From contig CAVPSJ010000005.1 in assembly GCA_963708295.1 (NCBI GenBank), positions 1 through 64,000 of the forward strand: a DNA stretch of 64,000 nucleotides. Reading direction: 5' to 3'. The stretch comes from an uncultured delta proteobacterium (GTDB lineage: Bacteria > Desulfobacterota > BSN033 > UBA1163). Positions 54,504 through 63,704 of this stretch are shown piece by piece (position 1 is the stretch's first letter; each line of letters starts with the position of its first letter). Below the pieces are notes generated by a model that ran no database searches, was not told the origin of the DNA, and was given only the letters and a program-made list of their open reading frames with translations. Made by a program: the position numbers and the translations under genes.

Positions 54504-57500
54504 TCAGGCAGCTGCTTCTGCCGTCGGCTCTCCCTCGCCTTCGGTTGGAGTCTCTTCTCCCGTGTATCCCTCCACCCAAAGCTCCAAGGCTTTGTACTTG
54601 GAGAGACCGGTACCGGCCGGGATCAGGCGTCCCATGATGACATTCTCCTTCAATCCTTTCAGATTGTCCACCTTGCCTGCGACCGCTGCCTGGGTCAGCA
54701 CCTTGGTCGTCTCCTGGAAGGAGGCGGCAGAGATGAAGCTATCCGTGATGAGGGAAGCCTTCGTGATTCCCAGGAAGAGAGGCTCGCCCTCAGCGGGTTT
54801 TCCTCCATCCTCCATGACTCGGGCATTCTCTTCTTCAAAAACAAATTTTTCCACTTGGTCGTCCACCAAAAAGTGAGTGTCCCCTACTTCGCGGATCTTC
54901 ACCCTTTTGAGCATCTGGCGAACGATGACTTCGATATGTTTATCGTTAATCTTGACCCCCTGGAGTTTATATACCTCCTGGATTTCATCCACCAGATACC
55001 GGGCCAGGGCCTTATCCCCCAATACTCTTAAAATATCATGGGGATTGGAAGGGCCATCCATCAAGGCCTCCCCTGCTCGGACAAAATCGCCTTCATGGAC
55101 GCTGACATGTTTTCCCCTGGAAACCATGTATTCTTTGACTTCGCCCACCTCGGGCCGAATGACCACCTTCCTTTTCCCCTTGAGGTCCTTTCCGAATTCA
55201 ACCATTCCGTCAATATCGCTGATCAAGGCATACTCTTTGGGCTTTCTGGCCTCAAAAAGTTCAGCCACCCGAGGAAGACCTCCTGTGATATCTTTCGTCT
55301 TCGTCGTCTCCCGCGGGATCTTCACGATGACATCCCCCGCTTCTACCGCATCCCCTTCGGAGATAAAAATGTTGGCTCCCACCGGAAGAAGATATCGAGC
55401 CTGGGACGCAGAACCCGGAAGATTCAGCGTCCTGCCCTTATCATCCTTGATGGAGATCCTTGGCCGAAGCTCCGCGTCTTTTGATTCCGTGATCACTTTT
55501 CTGGAAAGGCCGGTGAATTCATCCACCTGTTCCTGCATCGTTGCCCCTTCGATGATATCTCCAAACTTCACCCTCCCCGAAACCTCCGTCAAAACAGGGA
55601 TGGCGTAAGGATCCCACTCCGCCAGGATCTCTCCCTCTTTTACCTTCTGTCCATCCTTGACCTTCAGTTTCGCTCCATAAATCACCGAATACCGTCTTCG
55701 TTCCCTCCCATTTTCATCCAAGACGGCAATTTCGCCGTTGCGGTTCATGACGATCAGATTCCCTTCGCGGTTTTTCACGCTCTTGAGGTTGATAAATTTT
55801 ACCCTCCCGTCAATCCGACATTCCAGCGTGGTCTGCTCCGCCCTCCGGCTGGCTGTTCCGCCGATGTGGAAGGTCCTCATCGTCAGCTGGGTTCCCGGCT
55901 CACCAATCGACTGAGCAGCGATAATACCGATCGCCTCGCCCACATTGACCAGCCTTCCGCGGGCCAAATCTCTTCCATAACAAAGGGCACAGACACCTTG
56001 TCTTGATTTGCACGTCAGCACGGATCGAATCTTGACCTTATCAATGCCGATATCCTCGATGCGATCGGCTAACGTCTCGTCAATCTCTTCACTGCCTTTG
56101 GCAATCACCTCATTCGAGAAGGGGTCCCGGATTTCTTCTAAAGCCACGCGGCCCAGAATTCTTTCTTTCATCGACTCGATGATCTCCCCTCCTTCGACGA
56201 GCGACTCGACTTCGATCCCATCCAGAGTGCCGCAGTCATGCTCTCTAATCACGACGTCCTGAGCCACATCGACCAATCGCCGGGTGAGATATCCCGCGTT
56301 GGCTGTCTTCAGGGCCGTATCCGCAAGCCCCTTCCGGGCCCCGTGGGTAGAGATGAAGTACTGCAAAACCGTCAGCCCCTCACGAAAGTTGGCGGTGATG
56401 GGAGTTTCGATGATCTCTCCTGAAGGTTTGGCCATCAGACCCCGCATCCCGGCCAATTGTCGCACCTGTTGGGCGCTGCCTCGAGCCCCGGAGTCGGCCA
56501 TGATGTAAATCGGGTTAAAACTCTCCGTGGTCTGTTTCTCGCCGGAAGGAGCCACCACCTCCTCATTCCCCAGTTCCTTCAACATCACCCCTGCGATGTT
56601 CTCCGTGACCTGAGCCCAGATATCGATGACTTTATTGTATCGCTCCCCGTCGGTAATCAATCCGTCGGTATATTGTTCTTGAACCCTCTCGATCTCCCGC
56701 TCCGCTTCTTGAAGGAGCTTCCCTTTATTGGAAGGAATCAGCATATCGTCCAGGGAGATTGAAATCCCGGCCAAGGTCGCGTAATAATAACCCAAACCCT
56801 TCAACCGATCGGAGAGAAGGACCGTTTTCTTATCTCCTCCATACCGGTAGCAATAGTCGATGAGATTGGCGAGCTCGCTTTTCTTCATTACTTTATTGAT
56901 TAATCGGAACGGGATCTCCTCGGGGAGAACCTCTTTCAGGAGGATCCGCCCGACGGTGGTCTCGATGAGTTCCCCGTCCAATCGGACTTTGATCCGGGCG
57001 TGGAGGTCGATTTCATTCGCATCGTAAGCGATCCGGACCTCCTCTGGACTTGCGAACACTTTCCCTTCCCCTTTGACATAGGGGCGCTCCCGGGTCATGT
57101 AATAAATCCCGAGGACGATGTCCTGCGTCGGAATAATGATCGGCTTCCCGTTGGCGGGGGAGAGGATATTATTGGTGGACATCATCAGAATCCTCGCCTC
57201 CGACTGGGCCTCCACGGAGAGGGGAACATGGACTGCCATCTGGTCCCCGTCGAAATCCGCGTTAAAGGCAGCACAGACCAGCGGGTGAAGTTGGATGGCC
57301 TTGCCCTCGATCAAAACGGGCTCGAAGGCTTGTATTCCTAACCGGTGAAGGGTGGGAGCACGATTGAGAAGCACGGGATGTTCCCGAATGACTTCATCCA
57401 AGACATCCCACACCTCGGGCCTCTCCTTTTCCAACATCTTCTTCGCACTCTTGATCGTCGTCACCAAACCCTTTTCTTCCAAACGGTGATAGATGAAGGG

Positions 57501-58634
57501 CTTAAAGAGTTCGAGGGCCATCTTCTTGGGAAGCCCGCATTGATGTAATTTCAGCTCGGGACCGACGACGATCACGGAACGTCCGGAATAGTCCACTCGC
57601 TTCCCCAAAAGGTTCTGACGGAATCGGCCCTGCTTCCCTCTGAGCATATCGCTCAGCGATTTGAGAGGTTTCTTATTCGCCCCTAAAATCGTCCTCCCCC
57701 TCTTCCCGTTGTCGAACAAGGCATCCACGGCTTCCTGAAGCATCCGTTTCTCGTTTCGGATGATGATCTCCGGCGCATTCAACTCGAGAAGCCGTTTCAG
57801 ACGGTTGTTTCGATTAATCACCCTTCGGTAAAGATCGTTGAGATCGGAGGTGGCAAACCGACCCCCGTCCAAAGGAACCAGAGGACGAAGATCCGGCGGA
57901 ATCACGGGAACCACTTCCAAGATCATCCACTCCGGCTTGTTTCCCGACTCCAAGAAGGACTCAATAATCTTCAATCGCTTGGCCAACCTCTTCTTTTTCG
58001 CTTCTGAGGCCGTCTCCTTCATCTCTGCCCGGAGTTTCTGGGAGAGTTCCTTGACGTTGGTACCTCTCAGCAGCTCTCGAATGGCCTCCGCCCCCTGAGC
58101 CGCCGCAAAATCCTCCCCGTACTTTTCCCTCGCTTCCCGGTATCGATCTTCGGAGAGGATTTCGTTCTTCTTCAAAGGCGTTTTCTTTCCGTCGAGAACA
58201 AGGTAAGCTTCAAAGTAGAGAATGCGTTCCAATTCTCTTAACGTCATATCCGAAAGGATCCCGATCTTACTGGGAATGCTCTTAAGGAACCAGATATGAG
58301 CCACAGGGGTGGCAAGCCGGATATGTCCCATCCTCTCCCTGCGCACCTTGGATTGAATCACCTCCACACCGCACTTTTCGCAGACAATACCTCGATGTTT
58401 CATGCGCTTATATTTACCGCAATTGCATTCATAATCTTTCGTAGGACCGAAGATCTTGGCACAGAAGAGCCCGTCTTTTTCCGGTTTGAAAGTTCGATAG
58501 TTGATGGTCTCCGGCTTCTTCACCTCTCCGTGGGACCACGACTCAATCTTTTCCGGAGAGGCAATGGAGATTCGGATGGCATTGTAGCTAATCGGAGTCT
58601 TCCCCTTCTCAAAGAATGATAGATAATCTTCCAA
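54504..58634 (-). CDS. rpoC: RNA polymerase beta' subunit
   Basis: Zn finger, NADFDGD, trigger loop with SI3 insertion; AGGAGG RBS before TTG at 58634. Confidence 0.98.
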
Positions 58635-58739
58635 GGTTCTCCTCCTTTGCCCTGGACTTACATCCAAGGAATGACAGATGTCAAAACCCCGATGGACTTC
58701 ACTTGAACTTTGGAATTTGACATTTGAACTTTTCTCAAT

Positions 58740-61700
58740 TTAAATTTCTTCCCTCTTCTCCTCGACGAGTTCCGTGTCGAGACAGAGGCTCTGTAATTCC
58801 TTCACCAAAACGTTGAATGACTCCGGCAACCCGGGCTCCAGCGTATGTTCCCCTTTGACGATCGCCTCGTAGACCCGCGTCCTTCCCGCGACATCATCCG
58901 ACTTCACGGTCAAGAACTCTTGCAGGGAATGAGCTGCCCCATAGGCCTCTAAGGCCCACACTTCCATCTCTCCCAACCGCTGTCCTCCGAACTGAGCCTT
59001 GCCACCCAACGGCTGTTGCGTCACCAAAGAATATGGACCGATGGACCTTGCATGAATCTTGTCGTCCACGAGGTGGTGCAATTTAAGGATGTACATGTAG
59101 CCGACCGTCACCTTCTGATGGAACGGCTCTCCCGTCCTTCCGTCATAAAGGACGGTTTGCCCGGAGGTCGGGAGTCCCGCTTTCTCCAAAAGGTTCTTAA
59201 TCTCCTCTTCCGAAGCTCCATCGAAAACAGGAACCGAAACGAAAATTCCTTCGCCCAACCGGCGAGCCAAATCCACAATCTCCTCGTCGGTCGCCTGCTC
59301 CAGATAGGTGTTCACCTCTTTCGAGGAATAAATTTCTTTGATCTTTCTTCGGAGCAAACTCGGATTGAAATGTTTCCGCAAAAACTCCTCGATCTTCCAT
59401 CCGAGCCCCTTGGCCGCCCATCCCAGGTGAGTCTCGAGAATCTGGCCTACGTTCATTCGCGACGGGACTCCCAGCGGATTGAGAATGACATCCACCGGCG
59501 TCCCATCCTCTAAGTACGGCATGTCCTCCTCCGGGAGAATCCGGGAGATGATCCCTTTGTTCCCGTGACGTCCTGACATTTTATCTCCTACAGAAAGTTT
59601 CCGTTTCATGGCGATATAAACCTTGACGGTCTTGATCACGCCCGGAGCCAATTCGTCTCCCCTCTTCAGCTTCGCCAATTTATCTGCAAAAACTTCCTTC
59701 ACCACGTTGATCTGGAGCTCTGCGTGATCCAGAAAACGGTGAACGTCCGCAAGAACCCTCTTCCCCTCGACGATATCAATCTCCTTGAGTCGGTCGAACG
59801 GAATGGTCATCAGATGTTCCTCTTTAATCTTATCTTTGGCCTCCAAATAGACCCTGTTTTTCTTGTCATCCGAAACTTTGTGGGCGGCCCGCTTCCCGGC
59901 CAAATATTTCCCGATTTTCCTCCTCGTGCTGTTCTGGATGATCCGGATTTCATCGGCCTGATTCTTTAACAACCTCGCCTTCTCCTGGTCCTCGATCGCC
60001 TTCGTCCTCTCGTCTCTCTCCTGTCCCTTCCGGGAAAAAACCTTAGCGTCAATCACAATTCCCTCAATCCCGTGAGGAACTCTCAACGAGGTATCCCGGA
60101 CGTCTCCAGCCTTTTCGCCAAAGATGGCTCGAAGGAGTTTTTCTTCCGGGGAGAGTTGGGTTTCTCCCTTGGGGGTCACTTTTCCGACGAGAATGTCGCC
60201 GGGGTTCACCTCGGCTCCGATCCGGATGATCCCGCTCTCATCCAAGTCCTTCAAGGCCTCCTCCCCCGCATTGGGAATGTCACAGGTGATCTCCTCTTTT
60301 CCTAACTTGGTGTCCCGGGCCACACACTCCATTTCTTCGATATGGATCGAGGTGTAGGTATCTTCCTTCAGCAGCTTCTCGCTCATGAGGATGGAGTCTT
60401 CAAAATTATATCCCCCCCAGGGCATAAAGCCGACCAGGACATTCCGTCCCAGAGCCAACTCTCCCATATTGGTCGCTGGCCCGTCTGCGATCACCTCACC
60501 CTTCTTGACGTGTTCTCCGGTATAGACGATCGGCCTTTGATTGATGCAGGTATTTTGATTGGACCTTTTGTATTTAATCAACGTATAGATATCGACTCCC
60601 GGGTCATCCGCTTTTTGACCATCCTCGTCAGCACGGATGACGATTCGTGAGGCATCGACATCTTCCACCACGCCATCTCGTTTGGCCACGATCGTCACCC
60701 CGGAATCTCTCGCCACGATCGCTTCCATTCCCGTCCCGATCAACGGGGCATCGGTCTTGAGGAGCGGGACGGCCTGGCGCTGCATATTCGATCCCATGAG
60801 GGCTCGGTTGGCATCATCATTCTCCAAAAAGGGAACGAGGGAGGTGGCCACGCTCACCAGCTGCTTCGGCGACACATCCATGTACCGAATCTCATCGGAT
60901 TTTACCATCATAAACTCGCCCCCTCTTCGGGCGGAGATGAGCGGAGCGGTAAATCTCCCTTCTTTATCCAACGGGGCGTTGGCTTGAGCAATGGCGGGTT
61001 TTTGCCCGTCAACCTCTTCCTCCTCATCCAGGGCAAAGAGATATCGGATATGGTTGGTGACTTTTCCATGGGACACTTCCCGGTAAGGGGTCTCGATAAA
61101 CCCATAGTCATTGACGCGGGCATAGGTGCTGAGAGAGGTGATCAAGCCGATGTTCGGGCCTTCCGGGGTCTCGATCGGGCAGATTCGACCATAATGGGTG
61201 GGGTGGACGTCCCTCACCTCAAACCCTGCCCTTTCTCGGGTGAGCCCGCCGGGGCCCAATGCAGACAGCCGACGCTTGTGCGTAATCTCTGAAAGAGGGT
61301 TCGTCTGGTCCATAAATTGGGAAAGCTGGCTCGAACCAAAGAACTCCTTGATGACGGCTGATAGCGGTTTTGAGTTGATGAGATCATGGGGCATCAGGGT
61401 CTCCACATCTTGAAGACTCATTCGCTCCTTAATCGCCCTTTCGATCCTCACAAGCCCGATGTGGTATTGATTCTCCAGCAGCTCTCCCACGGTCCTGACA
61501 CGGCGGTTTCCCAAATGGTCAATGTCGTCCACCGCCCCCTGACCATCTTTCAGTTTGATCAAGTATTTAACCACCTCAAGGATGTCTTTTCGCCTCAGGG
61601 TGGTCTTCTCATCTTCCAGAATCTTCCGAATCTTCCCCTGAACATCATCCGTGAGGGTCCCATCCTTCATGGAGGGCATCAGCCCGATGGGATGAAGGAT

Positions 61701-63200
61701 CTTGGCGACGCGATGTATCTCCTCGGCCATTTCCGGAGTGGCAATGGCTTCATCAAAATCAAGCCAGCCCTCCAGGATCCGATCGACCAGCTCCCTTCCT
61801 CCCGCATAGGTCGCTCCTGCCGCCAAGGCCTCTTTCTTCCATCTCTCCGTTAAAACCAAGATCTTGGGAGGGTTCCCCTTCAGGCCGATTTTATGGTTCA
61901 GCTTCATCCTCCCCACTTTGGACAGGTCGTAGCGTTCGGCGTTGAAGAAAAGATTGTAGAAAAGGCCGATGGCTGTCTCGATCGTGGGAGGGTCTCCAGG
62001 ACGGAGCCTTTTGTAGATATCAATCAAAGCCTTTTCGGATTCCTTCTCTCGAAGAGATTTGCCGGGTTCGAGAACGGGCAATTTCTCTCTTTCTTCTGCG
62101 GTCAATCCGATCTTATCCATCACCAGTGTATCCCGCAATGAAGAGCTGACATTGATATTGTCGATGAACAGGATTTCGAAGGCCTCGACCTTCCTCTCCT
62201 TCATCGTGTCCAGTAGTTTTTCCGTCACCTCATCATTCGATTCGGCAATCACTTCCCCCGTTTCAGGGGCAACCACATCCTTCGCCAGGTATCGTCCGAT
62301 CAAATCCTCGGTTTCCACCGAAATGGTATTGATCTTCGCAAGCTCCAGCTTATCAAAAGCGTCCTCTGTAATCCGGCGATGCTTCTTCAGGATGAGCTTA
62401 TGCGTTTCCGGATCGAGGATATCGGAGGTGGCTTTCTGCCCCACCAATACCTCTCTTGCAATCTCTTTTTGAAATTTTCCTCTCCGGATCAGGACCTTCT
62501 CCTTACGATAGAAATAGTCCAACAGCTCTTCCCCGGTGTACTTGAGAGCCCGAAGGAGGACAGTGACAGGAATCTTCCGGCGTCGGTCGATTCTGACGTG
62601 GAGAAGATCTTTCTGGTCAAATTCGAAGTCGATCCAAGATCCACGGTATGGAATGATGCGTGCATAGTAGAACACCTTCCCACCGGTTTGGGGTTTGATT
62701 TGATCCTGGTCAAAAAAGACTCCAGGAGAGCGATGAAGTTGACTGACGATGACCCGCTCGGTCCCGTTCACAATGAACGTCCCGTTCTCGGTCATGAGGG
62801 GGATCTCACCAAAATAGACTTCTTGCTCTTTGACAGCCTTGATGCTCCTGGCCTTGGTTTCTTCGTTTATATCCCAGACCACCAGGCGGACCGTCACCTT
62901 GATCGGGGCAGCATAGGTCATCCCTCTGAGCAGGCATTCTTCCACATCGTACTTTGGCTCGGTCAGGCGGTAATTGACGAATTCAAGAGAAGCCGTTTCG
63001 TAAAAATCCTTAATCGGAAAGACGGTTTTGAATACCGCCTGAAGACCCACCGGTTCCCGTCTTTCCACATCCACATTGGCCTGAAGAAACTGCTCGTAGG
63101 ATCTTTTTTGAACCTCGATCAGATTGGAGATCTCCAGGACCTCTTTGATCTTAGAAAAGTTCTTCCGATATCTCCGATAGATAGGGACAACATTGGCCAT
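58740..63200 (-). CDS. rpoB: RNA polymerase beta subunit carrying a uL1 domain II insertion
   Basis: [47 protein letters not shown]; extra segment 61611-61880 resembles uL1. Confidence 0.98.
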
Positions 63201-63314
63201 AATCAATCCCCTCCCTTAAATAGAAAGTCTCTTCCCGTTCGGACTGCCACCGCTCCTTCGCTTTGTCCTTCTGAGAAGAGACAACAGGGTCCCTCAACAC
63301 CTCTGAATGTTTTG

Positions 63315-63704
63315 TTACTTAACTTCGGCCGTCCCCCCAGCCTCTTCAAGCTTTTTCTTCATCGCTGCGGCGTCGTCTTTCGAAACTCCTTCTTTGACTG
63401 GCTTGGGGACTCCTTCCACAAGGTCTTTGGCTTCCTTCAAACCCAATCCGGTCAGTTCTCTGACCACCTTAATCACTTGGATTTTCTTGTCACCAAAACC
63501 CGTCAGGATGACATCAAATTCTGTCTTTTCTTCAGCGGCAGCGGTTTCCGCTCCCGCACCCGCTCCGGCCATGGGCATCGCTGCCATCGCCATGGGCGCG
63601 GTGGCCTTGACTCCCAATTTTTCTTCCAGGGCCTTCACCAAGTCACGGGCTTCAAGCAAAGTTAAACCACTGATCTCTTCGGCAATCTTCTGGATATCTG
63701 ACAT
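63315..63704 (-). CDS. rplL: 50S ribosomal protein bL12 (L7/L12)
   Basis: [10 protein letters not shown]...[24 protein letters not shown]. Confidence 0.98.

Follow-up and report, generated by a model that had tools for sequence, protein, structure and literature searches.

A ribosomal protein uL1 domain II inserted in the RNA polymerase beta subunit of one uncultured order of Desulfobacterota

The window analyzed here, meaning the whole 64,000-nucleotide stretch of DNA, holds rpoC, rpoB, rplL and part of rplJ, with rplA lying beyond its edge, as shown in Table 1. The open reading frame at 58740–63206 was identified as RpoB by the TIGR02013 profile, which matches residues 12–1479 with 1853 bits (cut-off 801.15), and it contains all six Rpb2 Pfam domains (1, 2, 3, 45, 6 and 7). 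A search of the entire, 91% complete assembly gave just one PF00562 match, indicating a single rpoB. The gene likely starts at the ATG at 63200, giving a protein of 1486 aa as in its homologues; the identical RpoB homologues are 1486 aa long, and the RpoBs of the sister families measure 1394–1408 aa. The gene order nusG-rplK-rplA-rplJ-rplL-rpoB-rpoC, drawn from NCBIfam matches that include L11 and NusG, confirms the claim of the initial annotation that rplA lies just upstream of rplJ in this operon. The genome's own uL1 is intact and normal, with 235 aa, and its domain II is encoded at contig positions 64628–64882, about 3.0 kb from the rpoB insert described below.

Table 1. Features of the rpoB locus (positions on the contig; residues are those of the 1488-codon RpoB frame).
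Feature	Position	Strand	RpoB residues	Remarks
rpoC (beta prime)	54504..58667	minus		adjoins rpoB downstream; TIGR02386 1844 bits, cut-off 963.5
rpoB	58740..63206	minus		only gene for the RNA polymerase beta subunit in the genome; 1488-codon ORF from TTG at 63206
Downstream conserved RpoB segment	61500..61610	minus	533–569	runs to a conserved ten-residue motif
Inserted uL1 domain II	61614..61868	minus	447–531	85 aa; delimited against sister-family RpoBs
Altered loop HPIGLM	61677..61694	minus	505–510	replaces GPRGLM of uL1 (alignment with own uL1)
Upstream conserved RpoB motif (18 residues)	61881..61934	minus	425–442	closes the lobe segment before the insert
PETGE motif	62253..62267	minus	314–318	in a separate E. 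coli-type lobe insert, outside the uL1 insert
rplL (bL12)	63315..63704	minus		adjoins rpoB upstream; NCBIfam L7/L12 match
rplJ	from 63814			continues past the window edge; NCBIfam L10 match
rplA	64388–65095			beyond the window; possible donor; NCBIfam L1 329 bits, cut-off 216

The RpoB of this genome carries a segment homologous to domain II of ribosomal protein uL1. Minus-strand translation of 61611–61880 gives exactly the 90 in-frame residues quoted in the initial annotation (443–532), within the 1488-codon frame, and this piece takes in a few linker residues beyond the domain itself. When searched alone, the 90-aa piece matches PF00687 (Ribosomal_L1) with an E value of 1.1e-15 and 58.2 bits, above the gathering score of 32.2, and the match is confined to profile positions 43–138 of 198, which are the domain II portion. 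The NCBIfam profile rplA_bact (TIGR01169) likewise matches over positions 70–153 of 227 (E 6e-23), with a score of 81 bits that falls below the cut-off of 216 for a whole uL1 protein, and all 42 PDB sequences matching the insert at E ≤ 0.001 are uL1 chains. Residues 6–87 of the insert align with residues 74–157 of Thermus uL1, whose domain II comprises residues 70–160 according to the available text of PMC3602588, so that both the proposed identity as uL1 domain II and the proposed coincidence of its ends with the hinges between domains I and II are borne out. The N- and C-terminal parts of domain I are absent from the insert and the flanks are RpoB sequence; since the rplA_bact match is limited in this way and RpoB resumes on both sides, the insert represents a uL1-derived domain and not a uL1 protein. 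In comparison with the sister-family RpoBs, all four display an 85-aa gap at residue 447, and the uL1 insert is the sole internal indel of at least 8 aa within the first 1120 residues. The insert keeps a constant 85 aa, no indel interrupting the full-length sequences printed, and the uL1 core motifs KKEAL, AGA, DFD, ATP and GT.T are retained. We infer from sequence that the insert has the uL1 domain II fold, would be exposed on the surface of the lobe and would pack against it.

Both RpoB motifs that the initial annotation placed on either side of the insert are present in the translation, and the one at residues 425–442 is conserved across the RpoBs of insert carriers, sister families and Firmicutes. 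On alignment to an E. coli-numbered beta chain, residues 442 and 532 fall at positions 411 and 415, and the stretch 535–600 matches E. coli beta 418–483, which places the insert in the lobe between beta 411 and 415, in agreement with the site of about 410–418 first suggested. The loop in question is a known hot spot for insertions, beta-i5, and the RpoB inserts of Trichococcus, Vagococcus and Acholeplasma fall in the same alignment gap; the Firmicute and Acholeplasma inserts in this loop carry a VDPETGEI-type motif. The linker between the flanking motifs had been put at normally under 10 aa, which is true of the sister families, where 2–4 residues close the gap, but not of Firmicutes, with about 85–90 aa in a different fold, or of Acholeplasma, with a much longer segment. 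The Firmicute insert at this site, named SI1 or beta-i5, binds PcrA's C-terminal domain, and the SI1 region of the lobe lies far from the nucleic-acid exit channels, as described in the available text of PMC8318588. By eye, the PETGE motif elsewhere in the present RpoB (Table 1) resembles the TGE helicase-interaction motif that the same text reports for SI1 domains (PMC8318588).

The search of related genomes that the initial annotation had proposed found the insert in 52 of the 55 genomes of one uncultured order of Thermodesulfobacteriota/Desulfobacterota, bacteria related to sulfate reducers, including all 26 high-quality genomes and all 21 genera; the three genomes in which it was not detected are 69, 79 and 87% complete. 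It was found in none of the 13 genomes of the other two families of the class and in none of 389 other genomes (phylum sample of 401, E ≤ 1e-24, a threshold that a divergent second case would escape). Among proteins, PF00687 lies inside RpoB in all 120 clusters listed, the best 120 of 7965 significant matches from several sources. The precomputed Pfam lists of the databases already give PF00687 in insert-bearing RpoBs, so that the architecture is visible to automated annotation. No independent uL1 insert in the RpoB of other lineages was observed among the best 150 of 2339 representatives, a set clustered at 50% that may hide other forms of uL1 within RpoB; it contained four short fragments of the same insert family and one long protein, P0196, which is not RpoB. 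Further apparent inserts in RpoB open frames of 1497–1563 aa proved to be stop-to-stop extensions upstream of the start.

A piece of rplA misassembled or misbinned into rpoB could be suspected, as rplA lies just 3 kb off on the same contig and every carrier of the insert is a metagenome-assembled genome, but this explanation is already refuted. The insert and the genome's own, intact uL1 share 41 of 87 residues (47%), the same in-frame insert recurs throughout the order and in every protein cluster listed, and its substitutions exhibit a coherent pattern of purifying selection. Both junctions are spanned by DNA contigs from two independent public runs of different studies (X1 record 3, 61375–62200; X7 record 28, 61386–61973), and no contig joints skipping the insert were seen in the public runs examined. 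The initial annotation had associated misassembly with near-identity to rplA and with junctions free of spanning reads; the identity of 47% and the bridged junctions instead indicate a real insert. The GC content of the insert is in line with that of its flanks. One low-depth X1 joint (depth 2.1, side 22) connects 61331 with 61510; as it falls outside the insert, it was disregarded. In the relative G048 a TGA inside the match gave the appearance of an insert pseudogene, which was read as an assembly indel error; at this locus at least four frame breaks occur in rpoB, at least four in rplA and one in rplJ. The metatranscriptome contigs over the insert derive from relatives of 91–94% identity, and the RNA library may contain DNA; the junction-bridging contigs of RNA-library run X6, with 14 and 23 differing letters, also stem from relatives and were not counted as proof of expression. 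As to identity and history, it is near certain that this is a genuine, lineage-fixed insertion of uL1 domain II in RpoB.

In a tree of 100 domain II sequences (86 columns) the inserts are monophyletic, with an SH-aLRT of 100, and their stem branch amounts to 1.48 changes per site versus 0.05–0.26 for the end branches, a pattern suggesting that the insert diverged strongly before the order radiated and was then held constant. The most economical history would be a single insertion event in the ancestor of the order, with rplA, 3 kb upstream in the same operon, as the simplest donor. Domain II is itself inserted in domain I of uL1, which would hold its two ends together and make it easy to graft into a loop. 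The insertion would have been followed by fast change along the long stem, an acidic turn and the loss of the arginine of the rRNA groove, and then by stasis.

A local rplA donor is plausible, as the free tree places the insert clade beside the uL1 sequences of its own order and of f2 (SH-aLRT 91, 86 columns) and no source is simpler than a gene in the same transcription unit. The domain might instead have been acquired horizontally, its source being a foreign uL1 gene or some other protein in which uL1 domain II stands alone, and this foreign origin, although unlikely, draws on several observations. The AU test does not reject a grouping of the inserts with the uL1 of Bacillota/Mycoplasmatota (p 0.64), and the tree constrained to that grouping has an even higher likelihood than the free tree; the identity of the insert to the uL1 of its own order (42–51%) is no higher than that to some foreign uL1 sequences (up to 56%, over a shorter stretch); and lone uL1 domain II modules occur in unrelated proteins. 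The length of the stem branch means that the donor signal was erased either way. In the initial annotation the domain was said to have been grafted by local duplication and retained; its retention under selection stands, while a local rplA origin is a candidate, with the SH-aLRT of 91 on its side and the Bacillota/Mycoplasmatota grouping not rejected (AU p 0.64).

Purifying selection acts on the insert about as strongly as on the lobe around it. Pooled dN/dS (21 of 66 pairs, dS 0.02–1) was 0.079 for the insert, 0.058 for the lobe and 0.010 for residues 533–700, and over 16 genomes, where dS is largely saturated, it was 0.091 for the insert, 0.047 for the lobe and 0.024 for uL1 domain II; RpoB residues 533–700 range from 0.009 to 0.010. 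The insert values of about 0.08–0.09 agree with the retention under selection that the dN/dS check was meant to probe. Low values would also be expected for a functionless folded passenger whose misfolding harms an essential enzyme. The insert may accordingly be a uL1 domain II lodged in a permissive loop, devoid of a function of its own and selected only to stay folded, a reading that we consider unlikely. The loop is indeed permissive, with extra sequence in Firmicutes, Acholeplasma and a Xanthomonas-type chain; what the Firmicute insert does was for a long time described as mysterious (PMC8318588, available text); and the dN/dS of the insert is somewhat above that of the flanking lobe and 3–4 times that of uL1 domain II. 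A passenger accords poorly, however, with the lack of any loss in 52 genomes of 21 genera, with the fixed length of the full-length inserts printed and with the insert-specific residues that are fixed at positions variable in uL1, and rapid early change that then gave way to stasis has the look of adaptation to another role and not of drift.

The residues that changed bear on what such a role could be. In the pairwise alignment with the genome's own uL1, the conserved ten-residue patch of uL1 is replaced by a different ten-residue sequence in the insert, just as the initial annotation had stated. The insert loop reads HPIGLMPS[ML]K, and the switches fixed in the inserts include GPRG to HPIG as well as N to S and P to L, the latter two at positions where at least 87% of the 84 uL1 sequences agree; PIG is retained in all 33 full-length insert sequences printed. 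Ile507, which is isoleucine in 33 of the 33, stands in place of Arg135 of Thermus uL1, in a register inferred from the Thermus alignment, and this arginine contacts helix 77 of the 23S rRNA according to the available text of PMC3602588. The mean net charge is -3.3 for the inserts, +0.5 for the 84 uL1 domain II sequences and +1.5 for uL1 domain II of the same class.

A nucleic-acid or translation link, in which the ribosomal surface would still contact RNA (the tRNA elbow or an rRNA-like element), downstream DNA or a factor recognizing the L1 stalk, is improbable. It finds support in Arg130 of domain II, which in the ribosome forms a network with A2169 of the 23S rRNA and G19 of the tRNA at the elbow of the E-site tRNA (PMC3602588, available text); in the insert sequences printed its equivalent is Lys or Arg, which leaves room for some nucleic-acid contact, and the core motifs named above are kept as well. 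Against it stand the Ile at the Arg135 equivalent in all inserts printed, the negative mean charge, the distance of the SI1 lobe region from the exit channels (PMC8318588) and the absence of domain I, to which the RNA binding of uL1 belongs, domain II merely stabilizing the complex, as given in the available text of the review PMC10931766. It is even less probable that the polymerase bears a working L1-stalk mimic, the insert keeping a face for the tRNA elbow or a stalk factor and recruiting deacylated tRNA or a translation factor; if true, this would be a new physical channel through which transcription senses the state of translation.

Most likely, judging by its residues, the inserted domain no longer binds RNA. 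As it is acidic, has lost the arginine and lacks the RNA-binding domain I, it is best read as a candidate exapted surface module of the lobe, although this function is a reasoned guess; the insert would probably serve either to dock a protein partner specific to the lineage or to brace the lobe structurally. A docking role would have a parallel, by analogy, in Firmicutes, whose unrelated insert at this site docks the tail of the PcrA helicase. The insertion history together with such an exapted module, for protein docking or as a structural brace, is the best explanation of the data, with a probability of roughly 0.6. The repurposing suggested in the initial annotation is consistent with the altered patch, whereas the nucleic-acid-binding role proposed along with it is the less likely reading.

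The uL1 domain in RpoB is apparently an unusual and undescribed borrowing, and a ribosomal-protein domain inside a polymerase will surprise the specialist. Lineage-specific insertions of RNA polymerase are common and of obscure origin, and those known so far are ancient and drawn from a small set of recurring folds (BEAN/BBM2, HABAS/SBHM), whereas the uL1 insert belongs to a different and instantly recognizable family. The insertion is also young, being confined to one order with clean states before the event in the sister families, and because the homologous gene lies three genes upstream, both the origin of the graft and the change after transfer are directly testable. These include the idea that gene neighborhood underlies the graft (PMC11515920), as well as the fate of a moved domain, namely a burst of change, a reversal of charge and the loss of an RNA-contact residue. 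The beta-i5 loop is in addition shown to accept unrelated folds. In practice, work is limited by the nature of the carriers, all of them uncultured and represented by metagenome-assembled genomes.

Among known systems, the closest in position is the Firmicute beta-i5/SI1 insert, which sits in this very loop of the beta2 lobe, with the VGR.K.N.K motif on one side and, on the other, the helix that runs to the conserved ten-residue motif downstream. It has a similar size (about 85–90 aa in Trichococcus and Vagococcus) and is likewise lineage-specific and placed on the lobe at a distance from the exit channels (PMC8318588, available text). It differs in being phylum-wide where the uL1 insert is limited to a single order, and in its TGE hairpin of the BEAN class, a 'BEAN' type 3 insertion in the available text of PMC11515920, where the present insert is a Ribosomal_L1 homologue; no TGE or TGD motif occurs in the uL1 insert sequence, the PETGE of the same RpoB lying at residues 314–318. 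To uL1 domain II itself the insert is linked by a collinear, significant match over the whole domain, by the core motifs and by boundaries at the hinge strands, and it departs from uL1 in the lack of domain I, in HPIG for GPRG, in being acidic and not slightly basic, and in residing inside RNA polymerase. Lone copies of uL1 domain II were also observed in P0196, a Sel1-repeat protein, and P0144, a protein with an FGE-sulfatase domain, where the PF00687 match runs from profile position 42 or 45 to 146 or 162; unlike RpoB, these hosts are unrelated to transcription, and they are single metagenomic cluster representatives that may be chimeric. As the initial annotation had supposed, no published description of a uL1 domain in RpoB was found in the literature searched, and the supplementary variant-architecture tables of PMC11515920 may bear on novelty; in the available text of that work, uL1 appears as a neighboring gene only and not as an inserted domain. 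The BEAN/HABAS domains of polymerase and archaeal uL10 treated in that Protein Sci paper of 2024 offer a parallel, as internal insertions in beta and as a domain shared between transcription and translation, and its authors speculate that the gene neighborhood, with uL1, uL11 and NusG beside rpoB, influenced acquisition. The lineage-specific beta insertions of that work are of the BEAN class and belong to deep, ancient lineages (PMC11515920, available text), whereas the uL1 insert comes from another family and is young, at the level of a single order.

In this uncultured Desulfobacterota order, the only RNA polymerase beta subunit includes a homologue of uL1 domain II as a constant part maintained by selection. 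The rpoB gene (Table below) is single-copy in the assembly (4.95 Mb, 91% complete) and lies in the usual operon arrangement nusG-rplK-rplA-rplJ-rplL-rpoB-rpoC, with its product identified by TIGR02013 (1853 bits, cut-off 801) and every Rpb2 Pfam domain present. The true or annotated start is probably the ATG two codons inside the listed TTG, because homologues that are identical across the searched region measure 1486 aa. An open frame of 428 codons also runs antisense to rpoB over its 5' part; strong constraint on rpoB makes a spurious shadow ORF the probable explanation. The 90 residues that the initial annotation quoted as the insert are the exact translation of their stretch; searched alone, they matched Pfam Ribosomal_L1 (PF00687) above its gathering score (58.2 against 32.2 bits, E 1.1e-15, profile positions 43-138 of 198) and NCBIfam rplA_bact (E 6e-23, positions 70-153 of 227). 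All 42 matches at E <= 0.001 in a PDB sequence search were uL1 chains, and insert residues 6-87 align to residues 74-157 of Thermus thermophilus uL1. Domain II of the Thermus protein comprises residues 70-160 according to the 70S crystal-structure paper (PMC3602588), and the insert is thus uL1 domain II cut at both hinges, as the initial annotation proposed.

Coordinates of the features discussed (window or contig numbering unless another locus is named)
Feature	Coordinates	Strand	Remarks
rpoB	58740-63206	minus	single open frame, 1488 codons
rpoB listed start, TTG	63206	minus
rpoB inner start, ATG	63200	minus	two codons further in
uL1 domain II insert, 90-aa version	61611-61880
Antisense open frame	62379-63665	plus	428 codons
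rplA domain II	64628-64882		3.0 kb upstream of insert, same operon
Run X1, record 3	61375-62200		DNA contig over both junctions
Run X7, record 28	61386-61973		DNA contig over both junctions
rpoB locus of relative G048 (L107)	G048:C33:72000-77600		frame breaks: rpoB at least 4, rplA at least 4, rplJ 1; bL12 and uL11 intact

Misassembly of rplA into rpoB was excluded. The genome retains an intact uL1 of its own (235 aa; 329 bits, cut-off 216), which shares only 41 of 87 compared residues (47%) with the insert, and the GC content is even over both junctions. DNA contigs from public runs of two studies, X1 and X7, bridge both junctions, and no joints bypassing the insert were found among the public-run contigs examined; in the soil metatranscriptome run X6, contigs from relatives at 91-94% cross each junction, which do not prove transcription. 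When RpoB residues 400-580 were searched against the protein database, all of the best 120 of 7965 significant matches were clusters with PF00687 inside RpoB, at 81-100% identity, and the few names given among them were Thermodesulfobacteriota, Desulfobacterota, Syntrophaceae or Deltaproteobacteria MAGs.

The order consists of one family, and 52 of its 55 species-representative genomes carry the insert within a long RpoB frame, representing 21/21 genera and 26/26 high-quality genomes, with the three genomes lacking a match being 69, 79 and 87% complete; none of the 13 genomes from the two remaining families of the class had it. Of 401 genomes sampled evenly across the phylum, 12 matched at E <= 1e-24, all from the single family of the order, and 0/389 genomes elsewhere did so at this threshold. 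The RpoBs of the sister families (1394-1408 aa) stop matching the window RpoB at residues 442-446 and restart at 529-533, bridging the site with 2-4 residues in the alignment (KLGLKGVP-EDQTVLRR against KLGLKGNPP...[11 protein letters not shown]), and within the first 1120 residues of RpoB no internal indel of at least 8 aa occurs other than this gap of 85 aa at residue 447. The genome-contig search retained 80 loci, of which nine carried the insert, all in metagenome-assembled genomes with no cultured carrier seen among these records, and 71 were ordinary uL1 genes at 40-56% identity. In the relative G048, itself one of the carriers, a decayed copy was considered and rejected, as the frame breaks are spread over rpoB, rplA and rplJ and read most simply as an indel-rich assembly, which may also explain the 75% completeness of that genome. 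Separately, the similarity of P0125, a 162-aa metagenomic RpoB fragment from this family, to the insert breaks off in mid-domain and returns further on, a pattern that suggests two frameshift errors in a short contig and not a variant form.

Differential levels of constraint were observed along RpoB (Table below), and the insert is under purifying selection, not evolving neutrally. The pooled values of the close set derive from 21 of the 66 pairs among 12 sequences, with an overall dS of 0.02-1.0, while the wide set comprises 16 genomes across the order, with 106 of 120 insert pairs usable and dS largely saturated. All 33 full-length sequences examined have an insert of 85 aa and, given this constancy and the low dN/dS, the insert is constrained about as strongly as its host domain. 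Set against 84 uL1 domain II sequences, the inserts have preserved the motifs of the core (V, KKEAL, AGA, G, FD, A.P, L.P.G.MP and K.GT.T.D). A passenger that is folded but functionless is a rival reading of the insert and is considered less likely.

dN/dS of the insert, its host protein and uL1 (pooled for the 12 close sequences; wide-set dS largely saturated)
Segment	12 close sequences	16 genomes
Insert	0.079	0.091
Lobe, RpoB residues 151-442	0.058	0.047
RpoB residues 30-150	0.041	0.026
RpoB residues 533-700	0.010	0.009
uL1 domain II, same genomes		0.024
uL1 domain I, same genomes		0.052

When 100 domain II sequences (16 inserts, 84 uL1) were compared over 86 columns by maximum likelihood, the inserts proved monophyletic (SH-aLRT 100), with a long stem (1.48 changes per site) and short end branches (0.05-0.26), so that the insert changed in a burst and was static thereafter. 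Its nearest neighbours in the tree, with a support of only 91%, are the uL1 of the same order and of one sister family, and grouping with Bacillota/Mycoplasmatota uL1 was not rejected by the AU test (p 0.64), the constrained search even giving a higher likelihood. The rplA of the same operon would be the simplest candidate donor, by the local duplication suggested in the initial annotation.

The inserts carry fixed switches at positions conserved in uL1 (A453T, D492E, M494A, N512S and P513L, uL1 residue first), HPIG in place of the uL1 GPRG, and a mean net charge of -3.3 against +0.5 for uL1 domain II (+1.5 in their own class). By alignment register, the Ile of HPIG stands at the position of Thermus uL1 Arg135, which according to the structural paper reaches into the groove of 23S helix 77, and a Lys five residues earlier at that of Arg130, reported there to contact A2169 and tRNA G19 (PMC3602588). 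A nucleic-acid or translation-linked role could have been retained, and the Lys may be set on its side, but we consider this improbable: a 2024 review assigns the RNA-binding properties of uL1 to domain I, with domain II only stabilising the complex (PMC10931766), and domain I is absent from RpoB. With domain I missing, the Arg135 equivalent lost and the domain acidic, the insert has most likely given up RNA binding. It would instead represent an added surface that either receives a protein partner or braces the lobe, and a new protein interface would be in keeping with the hydrophobic residues gained in the loop that once faced rRNA (R to I, P to L).

A full-text literature search, with some earlier work and supplementary tables outside its reach, found no published description of a uL1 domain in RpoB, and the architecture is already visible in automated Pfam annotation. 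A lone uL1 domain II was also observed in two unrelated proteins from the protein-representative searches, covering PF00687 profile positions 45-146 in P0196 (1017 aa, which also has Sel1 repeats and matches TIR_2 weakly, below threshold) and 42-162 in P0144 (463 aa, with an FGE-sulfatase domain); provided that both proteins are genuine and no chimeras, the domain would have been reused more than once. In the relevant passages of a 2024 survey of RNA polymerase insertions, the lineage-specific beta insertions are placed in the BEAN class, uL1 is named only as a neighbouring gene, and gene neighbourhood is speculated to have shaped such acquisitions (PMC11515920).

RpoB residues 442 and 532 correspond to positions 411 and 415 of the E. 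coli-numbered beta chain 9gdo_C, and residues 535-600 align to E. coli beta 418-483. The identical gap is occupied in the RpoBs of Trichococcus, Vagococcus and Acholeplasma by a lineage-specific insert with a VDPETGEI-type motif; a PETGE motif of the window RpoB lies elsewhere, at residues 314-318 inside a separate E. coli-type lobe insert. The insertion of Acholeplasma oculi RpoB (1273-aa frame) is about twice the Firmicute length and contains a TGEV motif, and the Xanthomonas-type beta chain 6j9e_C (1383 aa) has about 30 extra residues there, from chain position 419 to 450. Since all of these fall in it, the loop is an insertion hot spot, and the description of the linker as normally under 10 aa is right for E. 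coli-like and sister-family enzymes only. In the PcrA-RNAP study the Firmicute insert is named SI1, with beta-i5 as its other name, is located on the beta2 lobe at a distance from the exit channels, and is shown to bind the C-terminal Tudor domain of PcrA (PMC8318588); by analogy with other beta-i5 inserts, the uL1 insert would project from the lobe surface. We rate as new the domain family, unreported at this site, and its recent and traceable history, whereas a lineage-specific RpoB insertion is known there, the Firmicute-type SI1 or beta-i5 sharing the same loop with the uL1 insert of the order.
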